Source: a virus (lineage: Duplodnaviria; Heunggongvirae; Uroviricota; Caudoviricetes). Taken from it: DNA of 25,620 nucleotides. The stretch lies in the IMG/VR virus record IMGVR_UViG_2713896798_000006; one strand, given 5' to 3'. Positions 5,079 through 23,172 of the stretch are shown one piece after another. Under the pieces are notes generated by a model, which was given only the letters and a program-made list of their open reading frames with translations, was not told the DNA's origin and made no database searches. The position numbers were made by a program, and so were the translations under genes. Numbering within the stretch: the first letter of the stretch is position 1; each line of letters opens with the position of its first letter.

Positions 5079-5136
5079 AAAAAGGGCGGCAGAGCAGCCA
5101 CGGAGTAAAACTGATACCGCCAAACGTCACCAGAAA
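5079..5136 (-). ncRNA. dicF: DicF small RNA (ftsZ-targeting sRNA of the dicB operon)
   Basis: Reverse complement of 5084..5136 reads TTTCTGGTGACGTTTGGCGGTATCAGTTTTACTCCGTGGCTGCTCTGCCGCCC followed by TTTTT, matching the ~53-nt DicF sequence as I recall it; lies about 175 nt upstream of dicB. Confidence 0.8.
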
Positions 5137-12693: not shown

Positions 12694-12908
12694 GGTAAAA
12701 ACGGTTTGCGGTAAAGCGAGAGTTAAGTAGAATTGCTGCGGGTGCTTGAGGCTGTCTGCCTCGGGCATGCCACCGTAAGGCAGACAGAGAAAAGCCCCAG
12801 TTAACATTACGCGTCCTGCAAGACGCCTAACATTAATCTGAGGCCAATTTCATGCTAGACATATGTAGGTTAGCCTCTTACGCGCCGAAAGGCAAGGAGA
12901 AGCAGGCT

Positions 12909-13064
12909 ATGAAGCAGCAAAAGGCGATGTTAATCGCCCTGATCGTCATCTGTATCACCGTCATAGTGACGGCACTGGTAACGAGGAAAGACCTCTGCGA
13001 GGTACGAATCCGAACCGGCCAGACGGAGGTCGCTGTCTTCACAGCTTACGAACCTGAGGAGTAA
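12909..13064 (+). CDS. hokD: Hok/Gef family type I toxin (51 aa)
   Basis: MKQQKAMLIALIVICITVIVTALVTRKDLCEVRIRTGQTEVAVFTAYEPEE is essentially K-12 HokD as I recall it; followed by a terminator; the track ORF extends upstream in frame from 12852. Confidence 0.85.
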   Translation: MKQQKAMLIALIVICITVIVTALVTRKDLCEVRIRTGQTEVAVFTAYEPEE

Positions 13065-14573: not shown

Positions 14574-14948
14574 ATGCTCATAGATTTGGTTTTACCTTAC
14601 CCGCCGACGGTGAACACTTACTGGCGACGCCGTGGCAGCACATATTTTATCTCGGAGGAGGGAAAGCGTTATCGCCGGGCTGTGGCGCTTATTGTTCGCC
14701 AGCAGCGGCTGAAATTAAGCCTGTCCGGAAGGCTGGCGATAAAGATTATTGCCGAGCCACCGGATAAGCGCCGCCGTGACTTGGACAATATTCTGAAAGC
14801 GCCGCTGGATGCGCTGACGCATGCGGGGTTGCTAATGGACGATGAGCAGTTTGATGAAATCAATATCGTTCGTGCTCAGCCAGTATCTGGTGGACGTCTG
14901 GGGGTGAAGATTTACCCCATAATGCTTGAAGGGCAGGTCAAAAAATGA
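14574..14948 (+). CDS. rusA: RusA-type Holliday junction resolvase
   Basis: PPTVNTYWRRRG...PDKRRRDLDNILKAPLDALTHAGLLMDDEQ parallels RusA (PPSNNRYY...[26 protein letters not shown].Q). Confidence 0.75.
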   Translation: MLIDLVLPYPPTVNTYWRRRGSTYFISEEGKRYRRAVALIVRQQRLKLSLSGRLAIKIIAEPPDKRRRDLDNILKAPLDALTHAGLLMDDEQFDEINIVRAQPVSGGRLGVKIYPIMLEGQVKK

Positions 14949-15766
14949 AACTGGAAGATTTACCGAAATACTACTCCCCAAAATCCCCCGGCCTGACTGA
15001 TGCATCGGCCTCAACGTCGAAAGATACGCTGAGTATCACTGATGTGATGGCTGCGCAGGGCATGACACAGAATTGGGCTGAGATGGGGTTTTCTGCGTTC
15101 CTTGGGAAAATGGGCATTAGTATGAATGACAGAGAGCGGGCAACAGAATTGCTGACAGAATATGCACTCAGTCGGTGTGATCGCGTGGCGGCGTTAAGAA
15201 AACTCCCGGCAGAAATAAAACCGGCAGTGATGCGTATTATGGCTTCGTATGCGTTTGAAGATTATGCCCGTAGCGCGGCGAGCAAAAAACAGTGCCCCTG
15301 TTGTCACGGAAAAAAATTTATTGAAAGCGAGGTTTTTACAAACAAGATCCAGTATCCGGATGGTAAGCCGCCAGTGTGGGCAAAGTGCACAAAAGGCGTG
15401 TATCCGTCTTACTGGGAGGAATGGAAAAAAGTCAGGGAGGTGGTAAAAGTTGCCTGTCCGGAGTGTGGAGGGAAGGGGGAGGTTTCCACCGCCTGTAAAG
15501 ATTGTCGTGGGCGCGGTGTTGCCATTCATCGTGAAGAGTCGGTAAAACGTGGTATGCCTGTTATCAGAGACTGCCAGCGTTGTGGTGGTCGTGGCTATGA
15601 AAGATTACCTTCAACGGAGGCATTTAATGCCATATGTAATGTAACCGATGCCATATCTCTTGATACATGGAAAAAAACAGTTAAACGTTTTTACGATACG
15701 CTGGTGGTGCAGTTTGATATTGAAGAAGCATGGGCAGAACAACAACTGAAAAAGGTGACCAGATAG
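14945..15766 (+). CDS. Putative late antiterminator (Q-like) with DnaJ-type CxxCxGxG zinc-finger repeats
   Basis: Three CxxCxGxG motifs (CPECGGKG, CKDCRGRG, CQRCGGRG) plus CPCCHGKK; located after rusA and before a promoter/terminator pair and the lysis genes. Confidence 0.5.
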   Translation: MKLEDLPKYYSPKSPGLTDASASTSKDTLSITDVMAAQGMTQNWAEMGFSAFLGKMGISMNDRERATELLTEYALSRCDRVAALRKLPAEIKPAVMRIMASYAFEDYARSAASKKQCPCCHGKKFIESEVFTNKIQYPDGKPPVWAKCTKGVYPSYWEEWKKVREVVKVACPECGGKGEVSTACKDCRGRGVAIHREESVKRGMPVIRDCQRCGGRGYERLPSTEAFNAICNVTDAISLDTWKKTVKRFYDTLVVQFDIEEAWAEQQLKKVTR

Positions 15767-15771
15767 CTTTG

Positions 15772-15799
15772 TTGATTTTTCCCGAATCTGTGGTAAATT
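15772..15799 (+). promoter_or_regulatory. Candidate late promoter (PR'-like)
   Basis: TTGATT (15772..15777), 16-bp spacer, extended -10 TGgTAAATT (15791..15799). Confidence 0.35.
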
Positions 15800-15846
15800 T
15801 GCCCTAACGATGGGCGTTTTATGCCTGACGTTAGAAGATTTTTTAC

Positions 15847-15870
15847 ACCCGTCGCTAGGCGGGTTTTTTT
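15847..15870 (+). terminator. Candidate tR'-like intrinsic terminator downstream of the Q-like gene
   Basis: Stem ACCCG/CGGGT with 8-nt loop followed by seven T. Confidence 0.5.
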
Positions 15871-15915
15871 ATGACTGAAATCACGCCAGTACAGTAAACG
15901 CGCTGGTGGTTGTGA

Positions 15916-16366
15916 ATACCGGTCTTTCAGCTTGCTGGCTTTTTCGACAAGAGTTATTGGTGTGTCACGTTAACCGGAAAAAGGAAAGTTTGAGAAACGC
16001 GATCTGGCACAGGCGGTTATTAATGCTGCCTACCTGGTGGCCTGTGCAGATGGTGAATGTGAGGCTTCCTAGAAAGCGAAGATCGAACAGGTACTGCGTA
16101 ATCAGCCTGCGCTGTCCGCGTTTACGTCAGAAATTAATGCGATTAGCGCAACCATTATCGGTCAGCTGGATACGAACTTTAAAATTGGTCGTCGTGCGGC
16201 GTTACGTGAGATCGAGGATGTGAAACACGATACGCGTGAAGCGGAAGATGTGCTGGATGTGGCGGTGGCCATTGCGGAGGCAGACGGCGAAATTGAGCCG
16301 GAAGAGCGCAAGGTGCTGGAAGAGATTGCCGGTGTTCTGGGTCTTCGTCTGGAGAATCACCAGTGA
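15916..16366 (+). pseudogene. TerB-like domain gene remnant (frameshifted, in-frame TAG, no start codon)
   Basis: One frame reads ...KRDLAQAVINAAYLVACADGECEAS*KAKIEQVLRN...DVLDVAVAIAEADGEIEPEERKVLEEIAGVLGLRLENHQ; upstream part (FQLAGFFDKS) is in another frame; TAG at 16070..16072. Confidence 0.45.
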
Positions 16367-16530
16367 CGGTAAAACTGCGCCTGGCTGTGGCTGCACTCCT
16401 GCTGTTTCTGGTGGTGATGGTGGATTTCACCAGCAGAATCATGTCGGTGCTGGCGGATGGGGTGCTGGTCTGCGGCATTGTGGTATTGCTGTGGCCGGTG
16501 ATAAAAAGAAACAGCCTGCATAATGCTTGA
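16363..16530 (+). CDS. Small two-helix membrane protein (55 aa) starting with GTG, overlapping the TerB-remnant stop
   Basis: Manual translation VTVKLRLAVAALLLFLVVMVDFTSRIMSVLADGVLVCGIVVLLWPVIKRNSLHNA; not in the track (under 60 aa). Confidence 0.3.
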   Translation: MTVKLRLAVAALLLFLVVMVDFTSRIMSVLADGVLVCGIVVLLWPVIKRNSLHNA

Positions 16531-16695
16531 TTTTTTTGTTTACTGTTTATTAAAAATACTACTGCATGGTGAATCCCCCTGTGCGGAGGGGCAATCAGCA
16601 ACCAGGTATATGTGATAATCGCGGATTCAGGTGCTGATACTGAATTCACCGGGAGGCACCCGGCACCATGCAAGAAAAAGAATGTGCATGCAAAC

Positions 16696-16723
16696 ATGCC
16701 CCTCTCCTGAGGGGCATTTTTAT
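16696..16723 (+). terminator. Rho-independent terminator (plus strand)
   Basis: 9-bp stem ATGCCCCTC/GAGGGGCAT, loop tcct, then ttttta. Confidence 0.55.
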
Positions 16724-16724
16724 G

Positions 16725-16752
16725 GGTAAAAAATGCCCGAATGGGTTCGGGC
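16725..16752 (-). terminator. Rho-independent terminator (minus strand), back to back with the plus-strand one
   Basis: Stem gcccgaa/ttcgggc with loop tggg; on the minus strand it is followed by the U-run complementary to ggtaaaaaat. Confidence 0.4.
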
Positions 16753-16848
16753 AATAGCATGAGATACTGATATTGTTGTGTTGTTATCGTGTGGATTTTA
16801 ACCAGGGTTTATCAGGCTGCGCAACTGCGTGGCCTTTTTTCATTTCTT

Positions 16849-16893
16849 GGGCTGTAGTCCCCGTGTGTCATTCAGGCTTCCGGACTACAGCCC
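16849..16893. repeat. 12-bp perfect inverted repeat with 21-nt spacer, about 45 bp upstream of the esterase gene
   Basis: GGGCTGTAGTCC (16849..16860) and GGACTACAGCCC (16882..16893). Confidence 0.5.
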
Positions 16894-16936
16894 ACTCCAT
16901 ATCTGATTTAATACACTATCCCGGCCGGGAGGAATA

Positions 16937-18787
16937 ATGACATTTAAACATTATGATGTTGTCAGGGCGGCGTCGCCGTCAGACCTTGCGGAAAAGCTGA
17001 CACACAAACTGAAAGAGGGCTGGCAGCCGTTTGGTAGTCCGGTGGCCATAACCCCTTATACCCTGATGCAGGCGATTACAGCAGAAGGTGATGTGGTGGT
17101 CAGTGGTGCAACTGAGCCGGAGTGGTACTACGTCATCGTACTGGCCGGGCAGTCCAATGCCATGGCTTACGGTGAAGGGCTTCCGCTGCCGGATTCATAC
17201 GATGCTCCGGATCCGCGCATTAAACAGCTGGCGCGCCGCAGTACAGTGACGCCGGGTGGGGCTGCCTGCAGATATAACGATATTATTCCGGCCGACCACT
17301 GCCTGCATGATGTGCAGGATATGAGTACGCTGAATCATCCGAAGGCAGACCTGAGCAAAGGGCAGTACGGCTGTGTCGGCCAGGGGTTACATATTGCCAA
17401 AAAACTGCTCCCGTATATCCCGAATAACGCGGGGATCCTGCTGGTACCATGCTGTCGTGGTGGTTCGGCATTTACCCAGGGCGCGGAGGGGACATTCAGT
17501 GCGGACACGGGGGCCAGCCAGGATTCGGCGCGCTGGGGTGTGGGTAAACCGTTATATCAGGACCTGATTGCGCGCACCAAAGCTGCATTACAGAAGAACC
17601 CGAAAAATGTGTTGCTGGCGGTGTGCTGGATGCAGGGAGAGTTTGACATGAGCGCCGCCACCCACGCACAGCAACCTGCGCTGTTTACAGCCATGCTGAC
17701 ACAGTTTCGTGCTGACCTCTCCGTGTTTAACGCGCAGTGCCATGGTGGCAGTGCTGCAGATGTGCCGTGGATTTGTGGTGACACGACGTATTACTGGAAA
17801 AATACATACGCTACCCAGTACGACACCGTGTACGGCGGGTATAAAAACAGGGAGAGTGAGGGCGTTTATTTTGTGCCCTTCATGACAGACGGTAACGGCG
17901 TCAATACCGCCACTAACGCGCCGGCAGAAGATCCGGATATTCCGGCATCAGGATATTACGGTGCGGCATCGAGAACGAATGGAAACCAGGTATCATCAAA
18001 CCGCCCGACACATTTCAGTTCATGGGCGCGCAGGAGCATTATTCCGGATCGTCTGGCAACCGCTATTCTGAACGCAGCCGGGCGCACCTCAGCCTTCATC
18101 AGTGGTAAGGCACCGGAAATCAAACCCTCGCCCGGCGGCAACACGCCATCGGGTCCGTCTGCAGATACGTCCGTTCGCACAATCTCCCTGCTGCCGGCAG
18201 CCGGAGAGGCTGCTGCGCAGGGCTGGAGCATTAAGGATGGCGGAATTCAGTTGTCAGATGGTGTATTTAAGATCACCAAGCAGAGCAATAAAACCTGGTC
18301 CCTGACGCATCCGGTGGATGACGCAATTACCCTGCTGACACAGGGCGGCAGACTGACCTGTAAGTTCCGCCTGTCAGGCGCACTGACCAACAATCAGTTC
18401 GGGCTGGGGATTTATCTGTATACGGATGCTCCCGTTCCTGATGGTGTGGCGATGACGGGTACCGGTAATCCGTTCCTGATGTCGTACTTCACTCAGACCA
18501 CTGACGGCAGAGTGAATCTGATGCATCACAGGAAAGCCGGAAACACGAAGCTGGGGGAGTTCGGCGATTACGGTAACGACTGGCAGACGCTGGAGCTGGT
18601 GTTCACCGCCGGCAGTGCCACGGTTACTCCGAAACTGAATGGAGTGGCTGGCCCGGCATTCCAGGTTATAAAAGACAGTCTGACACTGGGACTGAATGCG
18701 CTGACGCTGACGGATGTTACAAAAAATGCAGCGTATGGCGTTGAGATAGAAAGTCTGATGCTGGAGATAAATGCACCGGCAGCATAA
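16937..18787 (+). CDS. Prophage sialate O-acetylesterase-like protein (NanS-p type; SGNH/SASA hydrolase with N- and C-terminal extra domains)
   Basis: 616 aa; GQSNAMAYGEG motif early in the hydrolase domain; located between the Q-like gene and the holin, the usual site of nanS-p genes in EHEC lambdoid prophages. Confidence 0.6.
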   Translation: MTFKHYDVVRAASPSDLAEKLTHKLKEGWQPFGSPVAITPYTLMQAITAEGDVVVSGATEPEWYYVIVLAGQSNAMAYGEGLPLPDSYDAPDPRIKQLARRSTVTPGGAACRYNDIIPADHCLHDVQDMSTLNHPKADLSKGQYGCVGQGLHIAKKLLPYIPNNAGILLVPCCRGGSAFTQGAEGTFSADTGASQDSARWGVGKPLYQDLIARTKAALQKNPKNVLLAVCWMQGEFDMSAATHAQQPALFTAMLTQFRADLSVFNAQCHGGSAADVPWICGDTTYYWKNTYATQYDTVYGGYKNRESEGVYFVPFMTDGNGVNTATNAPAEDPDIPASGYYGAASRTNGNQVSSNRPTHFSSWARRSIIPDRLATAILNAAGRTSAFISGKAPEIKPSPGGNTPSGPSADTSVRTISLLPAAGEAAAQGWSIKDGGIQLSDGVFKITKQSNKTWSLTHPVDDAITLLTQGGRLTCKFRLSGALTNNQFGLGIYLYTDAPVPDGVAMTGTGNPFLMSYFTQTTDGRVNLMHHRKAGNTKLGEFGDYGNDWQTLELVFTAGSATVTPKLNGVAGPAFQVIKDSLTLGLNALTLTDVTKNAAYGVEIESLMLEINAPAA

Positions 18788-18999
18788 TAAAAAAAGCCAG
18801 CGCCCACTCTGAAGGACGCTGGCTAAAACGGGTAGATGTACTTCACATGATACTTATATTTGGCAGTACATTTTCTGACAGACAGTGACGGATGTTGTCA
18901 AGATATTGTGTCATTTATAACCTGAATCAGGGGTTGGTCGGAATGTTATCTGGCATTTTTAGCAGAGCCTGAATGCCATAATCACGGCTCCCGGCGTTG

Positions 19000-19079: not shown

Positions 19080-19286
19080 ATGGAAAAAATCACAACAGGT
19101 GTGTCATACACCACGTCAGCGGTAGGGACGGGATACTGGTTACTGCAACTGCTGGACAAAGTCTCTCCGTCCCAGTGGGTGGCAATAGGTGTGCTGGGGA
19201 GTCTGCTGTTTGGCCTGCTGACGTATCTGACTAACCTTTATTTCAAGATTAAAGAAGATAAGCGTAAGGTGGCGCGGGGAGAGTAG
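19080..19286 (+). CDS. Holin, phage 21 S-type pinholin
   Basis: [68 protein letters not shown] closely parallels S21 as I recall it. Confidence 0.8.
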
Positions 19287-19351: not shown

Positions 19352-20965
19352 TTATTTATTGGTGAGTACTACGTTCCATGGCAGGAGTTCGTCAACTCGG
19401 TTGGAAGGCCATTCCGGCAGTACGCTCAGGATATGGCGCAGATACGCTTCCGGATCGATACCGTTCAGACGGCAGGTGCCGATCAGCCCGTACAACAGTG
19501 CTCCACGCTCGCCGCCGTGATCGCTGCCAAAGAACATAAAGTTTTTCTTTCCGAGACAGACTGCACGAAGCGCTCTTTCCGCAGCATTATTATCCGCCTC
19601 CGCCAGACCGTCATCACTGTAATAACAGAGGGCATCCCACTGATTCAGTACATAGCTGAACGCTTCGCCCAGTCTGGATTTTTTCGACAGCGTACCATTC
19701 TTCTCCACCATCCATTCATGCAGCGACGTCAGTAACACTTTGCTTCGCTGCTGCCTGACGGCAAGACGCTCTGACTCCGGTAATCCCCGTATTTCATCCT
19801 CGATGGCGTACAGTTCACTGATTCGCTTCAGGGCTTCTTCTGCCGTCGCACTTTTGCTGCTGATGTATACATCGTGGATTTTTCGCCGGGCATGGGCCCA
19901 GCACGCAACTTCTGTCAGTGCACCACCTTCACGTTCTGCACTGAACAACCTGTCGTAACCTGTGAACGCATCCGCCTGCAGGATACCCCGGAAGGGGCGG
20001 AGGTGTTGCTCCGGGTGTTTCCCCTGCCGGTTCGGCGAGTACGCGAACCAGACCGCTGGAGGAGATGACGAACCCACATTGCGATCATCCCGGACATACG
20101 TCCAGATACGCCCTGTTTTCGCCTTTTTCTGACCCGGTGCCAGTACCTTTACCGGTGTGTCATCAGTGTGAACCTTGCGGGTGTTCATTACATAACGGTA
20201 CAGGGCATCATTCACCGGTGTCATTAACTGGCAGCACGCGTCAACCCAGTTGGAGAGTAAGGCCCGGCTCAGTTCGACACCCTGGCGGGCAAAGATTTCA
20301 CTCTGACGATACAGTGGCAGATGTTCGCAGTATTTTCCCGTTAACACGCGGGCAAGTAATCCGGGGCCCGCGATACCACGCTCTATCGGGCGGGACGGCG
20401 CCGGTGCTTCAACAATACAGTCACATTTTGTACAGGCTTTTTTTACCCGTTCTGTGCGGATCACTTTCAGGGCACTGCTCACCAGTTCCAGCTGTTCAGC
20501 GCTGACTTCCCCCAGATAATCCAGCTCACCGCCACACTCCGGGCAACAGCTTTCTTCTGGCTCCAGGCGGTGTATTTCACGGGGAAGGTGTGCCGGTAAC
20601 GGACGACGATGGCGCGACTGTCGCAACTGGCGGGGAACCTGAGGATCGTCTTCCCGCCCACTGTAACGATCGCTGTCCTGTTCACGTTGTTTCAGCAGAG
20701 CCTCAGCCAGTTCAACTTCACGACGCAGTTTTTCAGAACGGGTACCGAACAGCATCCGGCGCAGTTTTTCTATCTGAGCCCGCAGATGTTCTATTTCCCG
20801 TTCATCTTCTTCGATCTTTTCTTCGGCACGTGTCAGTGCAGAGCGCAGGAAGGCTTCCGTCTCTTCAACCAGACTCAGTTGCTGGTCTTTCTGACGGAGG
20901 GCTTCAGCCTGCTCAGAGAGCAACCTTTCCAGCTCTGCGATGCGAATGAGGTATTTCTGACTCAT
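19352..20965 (-). CDS. IS66-family transposase (TnpC, 537 aa)
   Basis: N-terminal coiled-coil/leucine-zipper region, Cys-rich zinc-binding segment (CPECGG...CTKCDC) and length typical of IS66 TnpC. Confidence 0.85.
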   Translation of the reverse strand: MSQKYLIRIAELERLLSEQAEALRQKDQQLSLVEETEAFLRSALTRAEEKIEEDEREIEHLRAQIEKLRRMLFGTRSEKLRREVELAEALLKQREQDSDRYSGREDDPQVPRQLRQSRHRRPLPAHLPREIHRLEPEESCCPECGGELDYLGEVSAEQLELVSSALKVIRTERVKKACTKCDCIVEAPAPSRPIERGIAGPGLLARVLTGKYCEHLPLYRQSEIFARQGVELSRALLSNWVDACCQLMTPVNDALYRYVMNTRKVHTDDTPVKVLAPGQKKAKTGRIWTYVRDDRNVGSSSPPAVWFAYSPNRQGKHPEQHLRPFRGILQADAFTGYDRLFSAEREGGALTEVACWAHARRKIHDVYISSKSATAEEALKRISELYAIEDEIRGLPESERLAVRQQRSKVLLTSLHEWMVEKNGTLSKKSRLGEAFSYVLNQWDALCYYSDDGLAEADNNAAERALRAVCLGKKNFMFFGSDHGGERGALLYGLIGTCRLNGIDPEAYLRHILSVLPEWPSNRVDELLPWNVVLTNK

Positions 20966-23047: not shown

Positions 23048-23141
23048 GCAGAATATTTTGCTTAAAAATGACGTTGGCCAACGCGGGCAGATAACACGAA
23101 ATCCTGCGAACTGGCAAAACCCAAGTGAATAAAAGTAAAAA

Positions 23142-23172
23142 CCCCGTTTGTTGGTTGCAAACGGGGTTTTAT
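23142..23172. terminator. Hairpin with U/A-rich flanks on both sides (possible bidirectional terminator) between endolysin and Rz
   Basis: 9-bp stem CCCCGTTTG/CAAACGGGG, 7-nt loop, followed by ttttatgtttat and preceded by aaaagtaaaaa. Confidence 0.5.

Follow-up and report, generated by a model that had tools for sequence, protein, structure and literature searches.

What occupies the hairpin-rich gap in front of the esterase gene of this prophage, and is it one regulatory element or several? The gap measures 406 bp (16531-16936) and lies in a window of 25,620 nucleotides, by which is meant the whole stretch of viral DNA that was analysed (IMG/VR record IMGVR_UViG_2713896798_000006). According to the ORF list and Pfam, it separates a DUF3927 gene (16363-16530) from an esterase gene (16937-18787). 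A first-pass annotation, made from the letters alone, had treated it as a single element, a candidate structured sRNA or regulatory element with back-to-back terminators. Rfam places two convergent sRNA genes here instead, one of the STnc100 family on the plus strand and AgvB on the minus strand, and each of the back-to-back terminators is thus the 3' end of one of these genes. It can be held with high confidence that the gap is a small-RNA island of a lambdoid prophage resembling Sakai Sp17 and Sp10, in which the two convergent genes have their own promoters and abutting terminators. The island occupies the moron site, with the Q antiterminator on one side and the lysis genes on the other, and the STnc100/AgvB pair is already known, being found in many Shiga-toxin-type prophages. 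The features on which the argument is built are the following.

16527..16556, plus strand: putative sigma-70 promoter of STnc100, with -35 TTGATT (16527-16532), an 18-nt spacer and -10 TAAAAA (16551-16556); read from the sequence
16538..16727, plus strand: STnc100-family sRNA gene (Rfam RF02076); cmscan
16696..16722, plus strand: intrinsic terminator of STnc100; terminator scan, within the terminal hairpin of the Rfam model
16728..16789, minus strand, 5' end at 16789: AgvB anti-sRNA gene (Rfam RF02702; EcOnc01); cmscan
16795..16824, minus strand: putative AgvB promoter, with -35 TTGCGC (16824-16819), an 18-nt spacer, -10 TAAAAT (16800-16795) and a predicted start at C16789; read from the minus strand
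16814..16841, plus strand: third hairpin (stem 16814-16835) and T6, AGGCTGCGC-AACT-GCGTGGCCT; terminator scan
16848..16894, plus strand: perfect 13-bp inverted repeat TGGGCTGTAGTCC ... GGACTACAGCCCA with a 21-nt loop; repeat search and MFE fold
16927..16939, plus strand: Shine-Dalgarno sequence GGGAGG and ATG of the NanS-p-type esterase gene; ORF list, invariant among aligned homologues

The order of the genes around the island, as given by cmscan and Pfam, is Q (14945-15766, PF03589), TerB, DUF3927, STnc100 (plus strand), AgvB (minus strand), nanS-p and holin. The esterase gene is located on the plus strand and its product is of the NanS-p type, with the Pfam domains DUF1737, SASA and DUF6645; a gene for a P21-type holin (19080-19286) lies 3' of it. 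Terminator-like sites are about eight times commoner in this part of the window than in shuffled sequence, with 7 sites between 15600 and 17200 as compared to 0.9 +/- 1.0 in the shuffles.

Several other observations concern the neighbourhood. Directly 3' of the Q stop codon (15767-15871, plus strand), a promoter-like TTGATT-N17-TAAATT opens a unit of about 15773-15871, in which a small hairpin (15800-15816) is followed by a strong terminator (15847-15864) with T7. This unit is probably PR' with tR', from which a short RNA of about 70 nt would arise at the position of StxS. The TerB-family gene (15906-16366, plus strand) is split by an internal stop into two ORFs (15906-16223 and 16220-16366), and it is marked as a pseudogene by PGAP at an identical locus. 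Directly after the holin gene lies an IS66-family transposase gene (19352-20965, minus strand; PF03050, 328 bits), while L001, a locus that is otherwise identical, has a lysozyme gene in this place, so that the lysis cassette may be disrupted in the present prophage. Two further known prophage sRNAs are present in the window: sok (Rfam match of 114 bits, 12740-12914, plus strand), adjoining a hokD-type toxin gene, and DicF (75 bits, 5084-5135, minus strand). In addition, the sRNA PasC (Pearl Mizrahi 2021), which has no entry in Rfam 15, is located at 18789-18866 on the minus strand, directly after the nanS-p stop codon. This copy is identical to that of EPEC E2348/69 at 77 of 78 positions and contains an exact match to the published northern probe, at 18817-18841. 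With PasC 3' of the esterase gene, sRNA genes are therefore found on both of its flanks.

The plus-strand gene is recognized by cmscan over the full STnc100 model (1-206 of 206), with 148 bits as compared to a gathering score of 47 (E = 2.9e-33). The nested stem-loops that had been noticed at 16565-16670 are indeed present and make up the body of this RNA (16564-16671), a multi-branch fold closed by helix P1 (16564-16571/16664-16671, GCAUGGUG/CACCAUGC). The stretch 16564-16726 folds with a minimum free energy of -66 kcal/mol (z = -3.67), a stability reached by none of 200 shuffles. Helices P1, P2 and P5 and the terminator appear in the MFE fold, without P4 (GGATTCAG/CTGAATTC), which is paired in the Rfam model alignment of the window. 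The plus-strand terminator that had been marked at 16696-16723 consists of a 9-bp stem, ATGCCCCTC/GAGGGGCAT (16696-16717), followed by T5. Homologues of the gene at 13 other loci score between 57 and 208 bits. The P4 hairpin and the terminator stem covary over 14 homologues, and among these compensatory changes are seen in six of seven terminator pairs.

The start of this RNA is predicted near G16564 from the putative promoter, which is not reported by the consensus scanner. The promoter stretch is nearly identical in EPEC E2348/69, and the 5' end of PasD2 determined there by RNA-seq (NC_011601 741157) coincides with the corresponding G in GCATGG, which is position 16564 in the window. Together with the start of the Rfam model at 16538, this equivalent does no more than bracket the 5' end, to about 16531-16564. 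The suggestion in the first-pass annotation that a promoter in the AT-rich stretch would give a structured sRNA of about 160 nt, ending at the first terminator, agrees well with an STnc100-family RNA, the promoter being putative.

The STnc100 copy in the window equals EcOnc06, EcOnc27 and EcOnc05 of Tree 2014 and is related to PasD. In Sakai Sp17, EcOnc06 gives a northern band of about 177 nt and is associated with Hfq (Tree 2014, PMC4104026). The probe used for it maps to 16606-16640 in the STnc100 body with one mismatch, and the size of the band fits neither a start at 16538 nor one at 16564 exactly. A remark in the table of the same study, "homologue 5' of ECs1961" (Tree 2014, PMC4104026), points to the Sp10 esterase gene, which is ECs1961. 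In EDL933, transcriptome reads were obtained for each of the 11 STnc100 copies, and northern blotting confirmed one of them (PMC5331693); EcOnc27 of the Stx2 phage, alias sRNA103, is the STnc100 copy downstream of stx2B (PMC12711010). From the Hfq association of these near-identical copies, it seems likely that STnc100 acts in trans by base pairing.

Mapping of EcOnc06 by its published coordinates had put the Hfq peak on the third hairpin; this was dropped in view of an offset in the table, and the probe was used instead. The Sakai coordinates in Table S2 of Tree 2014 are displaced by about 140 nt relative to NC_002695.2 (L036, L038); AgvB1, for instance, is listed at 1941783-1941835, but its gene occupies 1941920-1941981. 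The published positions can therefore not be relied upon for placing EcOnc peaks in current records.

The minus-strand gene is matched just as clearly. AgvB scores 96.5 bits as compared to a gathering score of 56, is identical to the consensus at 62 of 62 positions and folds with z = -3.75. Its 5' variable region contains CACAACA at nucleotides 10-16 of the RNA (16780-16774 in the window), and at its 3' end a terminator stem (16753-16734) is followed by U6, reaching 16728. The minus-strand terminator reported at 16725-16752 thus exists, with its stem at 16753-16734 and T6, and is more than the mere terminator it was taken for, since it forms the 3' end of a characterised anti-sRNA. Members of the family have a total length of 51-60 nt and share a conserved 3' part (about 42 nt) that includes a Rho-independent terminator. 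Such a 3' part and terminator are present here, the 3' part being common to AsxR-type RNAs, and the placement, downstream of Q and convergent with a plus-strand sRNA, agrees with that described by Tree 2014. The boxes TTGCGC and TAAAAT, predicted to direct transcription from C16789, also precede the AgvB-like RNA of BP-4795 and AsxR of Stx2 phage II.

AgvB corresponds to EcOnc01a/b of Sp10 and Sp17, Hfq-bound RNAs of about 60 nt with mapped 5' ends, which are the most abundant new Hfq-bound RNAs in Sakai (Tree 2014, PMC4104026). The CACAACA-containing 5' region of AgvB pairs with the R1 seed of GcvB and derepresses dppA, and an agvB double deletion strain is outcompeted in bovine rectal mucus (Tree 2014, PMC4104026). 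In the window RNA, a stretch of 12 nt is a perfect Watson-Crick complement to GcvB nucleotides 71-82 in the R1 region. The duplex of the 25 nt at the 5' end with GcvB has a predicted energy of -19.9 kcal/mol as compared to -14.2 +/- 2.9 in shuffles, 16 of 500 of which were as good. The AgvB genes of Sakai Sp10 and Sp17 reach the same 96.5 bits and are identical to that of the window across the 62 nt in alignments. A match to an already described RNA family, the outcome that the first-pass annotation had itself set against its proposal, was therefore obtained twice, with STnc100 and with AgvB. The novelty that it implied does not stand, since each of the two RNAs corresponds to a curated Rfam family and to RNAs already in the literature (Tree 2014; Zhu et al. 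2026 preprint).

Between the AgvB gene and the esterase gene, two more structures are found. The T-run hairpin that had been seen near 16818-16848 lies at 16814-16835, with its T6 running to 16841, and the apparent -35 box of AgvB is contained in it. It aligns with the terminator of EPEC PasD2, and none of the 12 homologues in the alignment lacks its core, 88% of the cells being paired. Its homologue works as a terminator in EPEC, where it forms the 3' end of PasD. The inverted repeat noted at 16849-16893 is perfect, as had been claimed, and is 13 rather than 12 bp long, with arms at 16848-16860 and 16882-16894, 43-89 nt upstream of the nanS-p ATG. In the modelled fold it would form a stem-loop in the nanS-p leader. 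As a terminator this stem-loop was ruled out, there being no U-tract 3' of the stem. Perfect inverted repeats of at least 13 bp with arms at most 60 nt apart occur only twice in the whole 25.6 kb window; the other one, AAAACCCCGTTTG / CAAACGGGGTTTT at 23138-23170 with a 7-nt loop, looks like a bidirectional terminator.

Conservation of the leader stem is uneven. Among 12 homologues, the outer 7 bp are paired in 98% of cases and include one compensatory pair, U-A to C-G. The inner part has uncompensated mismatches in most lineages, and the loop varies in sequence and length. Only in the window, BP-4795 and the Sp17 lineage is the stem perfect; 4 nt are inserted into the 3' arm in Sakai Sp10, and in the alignment the repeat is absent from the EPEC PasD2 locus. 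The covariation score observed for the stem was reached by 9 of 500 shuffles, and related sequences without structure can give as much.

The island is widely distributed. In a 521-nt alignment with Sakai Sp17, the gap stretch differs at only two positions, and it is 98% identical to Sakai Sp10; both Sakai loci give the same two Rfam matches, STnc100 and AgvB. A 441-nt query is 100% identical in two RefSeq genomes. Of 5426 complete E. coli genomes, 2833 contain matches to it, the median number of matching places in a genome being 1 and the maximum 11. Convergent sRNA genes at the moron site downstream of a Q-antiterminated PR' have been described for Sp3, 4, 5, 9, 10, 11, 15 and 17 (Tree 2014, PMC4104026). 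The module of STnc100, a convergent short sRNA, the third hairpin, the stem-loop and nanS-p is present in the Stx1 phage BP-4795 and in several Stx2 phages, where the convergent minus-strand RNA is AgvB-like, AsxR or an unnamed variant without an Rfam match. In these Stx phages STnc100 scores 159-208 bits, as compared to 148 bits here, because the variable middle segment is shorter in the window.

Outside this group, STnc100 reaches the threshold in prophage regions of Klebsiella, Phytobacter, Enterobacter, E. albertii and Shigella and in other Escherichia loci. A pattern scan of genome contigs returned 26 loci, most of them chance matches in unrelated MAGs, and a re-scan of nine enterobacterial loci with Rfam placed seven of them (eight copies) at the STnc100 threshold. 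One E. albertii locus (L018, 4825-5482) contains two tandem copies about 460 nt apart, scoring 138 and 132.5 bits, downstream of a tRNA cluster. Sequence of E. coli phage type was also met in two unexpected contigs, with the STnc100 pattern and the nanS-p leader stem in one assigned to Xanthomonas pisi (L032, 888 bp) and with the PasD-type terminator in one from a Veillonella MAG (L026, 3054 bp); contamination or mis-binning is the likely source.

The two sRNA genes would then work as follows. In a lysogen, both RNAs would be made from their own promoters. The STnc100 RNA would start at about 16531-16564, end near 16722 and act on its targets in trans, and read-through from it on the plus strand would be stopped by the third hairpin. 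AgvB would mimic GcvB target sites, pair on Hfq with the R1 seed of GcvB, which is a core sRNA, and so relieve repression of, for example, dppA. Upon induction, RNA polymerase modified by Q would proceed from PR' through the three terminators into nanS-p and the lysis genes; this last step is based on general knowledge of lambdoid phages. Expression, 5' ends and Hfq binding are taken here from near-identical loci in other strains, and the two RNAs of this prophage would be expected to follow them.

It could also be imagined that the STnc100 body and its terminator are a cis-acting leader (a riboswitch, an attenuator or a put element) gating nanS-p and the lysis genes. The layout of promoter, strongly conserved multi-stem junction, terminator and gene is suggestive of this, and a holin ORF follows the element in Phytobacter (L013) and Klebsiella (L011), both of the non-Escherichia loci with ORFs checked. 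The conservation pattern points in the same direction: when 14 copies are compared, P1, P2 and P5 with their junctions are almost invariant among genera and the middle is variable. The most conserved parts are helices and junctions with no obvious single-stranded seed, which is unusual for a base-pairing sRNA. This pattern and the leader stem-loop lend support to a cis-regulatory reading of low probability. The P2 and terminator hairpins are, moreover, mutually complementary in the window, so that an alternative pairing is possible. However, this pairing is not kept in the Enterobacter and Phytobacter copies, whose terminator sequences are unrelated, and as a riboswitch-like switch it was rejected for not being conserved outside E. 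coli phages. A convergent gene and a second terminator stand between the element and the next ORF in the window, a discrete Hfq-bound RNA accumulates in Sakai and EDL933, Q already accounts for the read-through into late genes in lambdoid phages, and no ligand or protein partner is known. The cis-acting leader is thus very improbable. A related thought is that the four- or five-way junction serves as a binding site for a protein, RNA polymerase or a ligand and influences the downstream terminators in cis. With the PasD-type terminator and the stem-loop, it would then make up a gate, undescribed so far and independent of Q, that controls the expression of nanS-p and the lysis genes in lysogens; this, too, must be regarded as very improbable.

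The position of the gap invites two further explanations. In phage lambda, PR', 6S RNA and tR' follow each other in a layout that resembles the order of promoter, structured RNA and terminator found here, and a structured RNA of about 160-190 nt in the interval between Q and the lysis genes could accordingly be the short PR'-tR' transcript of a late promoter leader, like lambda 6S RNA or StxS. Yet Q ends at 15766, 760 bp upstream, with the TerB pseudogene and the DUF3927 gene in between; the unit directly after Q, TTGATT-N17-TAAATT with its T7-tailed terminator, is a better candidate, and in Stx phages the element is located downstream of stxB, far from PR'. Such a leader is hardly to be expected at this place. 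Still less credible is the idea of a tRNA cluster in decay or of several short protein-coding genes, which is brought to mind by the tRNA genes at the equivalent Q-to-stx position of related phages and by hypothetical ORFs drawn across the equivalent region in older records (BP-4795 ORF42, Sakai ECs_1960 and ECs_3499). ARAGORN finds no tRNA in the whole window, in keeping with what had been noted before, and an Rfam scan of 15700-17100 that admitted E-values up to 10 gave no match to the tRNA family RF00005. Where phages do possess tRNAs, STnc100 lies downstream of these as an element of its own. As to coding, no convincing ORF had been seen in the gap before. None of the five ORFs tested in or across it, small ORFs in the gap included, has a Pfam match, and no CDS is called there in the current PGAP annotation of an identical locus. 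Two convergent sRNA genes thus remain the preferred reading.

The significance of the island lies mainly in AgvB, by which a prophage reprogrammes the amino-acid and peptide-uptake regulon of the host GcvB and raises the fitness of EHEC in bovine rectal mucus (Tree 2014). The presence of AgvB marks the prophage in the window as a carrier of that trait, and the alignment of STnc100 with PasD provides a concrete picture of prophage sRNA diversification. Otherwise the finding adds little, as it re-identifies a known prophage sRNA island.

When compared with named systems, the AgvB gene agrees with that of Sakai Sp10 and Sp17 in its strand relative to the late genes, in the CACAACA mimic of GcvB targets, in the terminator and in its neighbours. 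No difference was found in the RNA; what differs is the host strain and the prophage mosaic, with a Q region different from that of PPyecE_EH1910 and an IS66 element after the holin gene. AgvB or AsxR, TerB, RusA and DUF1627 are typical neighbours of PasA and PasC (Zhu et al. 2026 preprint). AsxR (EcOnc02; RF02703), the anti-FnrS sRNA of Stx2 phages, corresponds to the window RNA in homologous position, orientation, 3' part and promoter boxes, and differs from it in the 5' variable region. With 43 bits as compared to a gathering score of 63 and that different 5' region, an assignment of the minus-strand RNA to AsxR was rejected in favour of AgvB.

The STnc100 RNAs of other prophages (EcOnc06 in Sp17, EcOnc27/sRNA103 in the Stx2 phage Sp5/933W and EcOnc05 in Sp4) share P1, P2, P5, P4 and the terminator with that of the window, and a common setting in the late region of a prophage, convergent with a short anti-sRNA. 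The variable middle is shorter here than in the Stx-phage copies, and these follow stxB or tRNA genes, whereas the copy in the window follows the DUF3927 gene.

It is precisely this position, between the DUF3927 and esterase genes, that is occupied by PasD1 and PasD2 in EPEC E2348/69 (Pearl Mizrahi 2021; Zhu et al. 2026), and a link between STnc100 and PasD has been drawn (Zhu, Shabalina, Storz 2026 preprint). Alignment with the PasD2 locus (NC_011601 741157-741328) reveals that the promoter region and the first helix are nearly identical and that the PasD terminator is the homologue of the third hairpin. Neither the STnc100 terminator nor the AgvB gene is present in PasD, and the two together account exactly for the surplus of about 130 nucleotides in the window. 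PasD has, in turn, its own seed CCUUGUGAG before the shared terminator. The window RNA was not assigned to PasD, as the PasD probe has no match in the window and an internal STnc100 terminator and AgvB are present. At the gathering threshold the PasD2 locus gives no Rfam match, STnc100 included, and by that test PasD and STnc100 are therefore related and not the same family. From its sequence, PasD looks like an STnc100 body to which the third hairpin is attached, the convergent gene between the two being absent.
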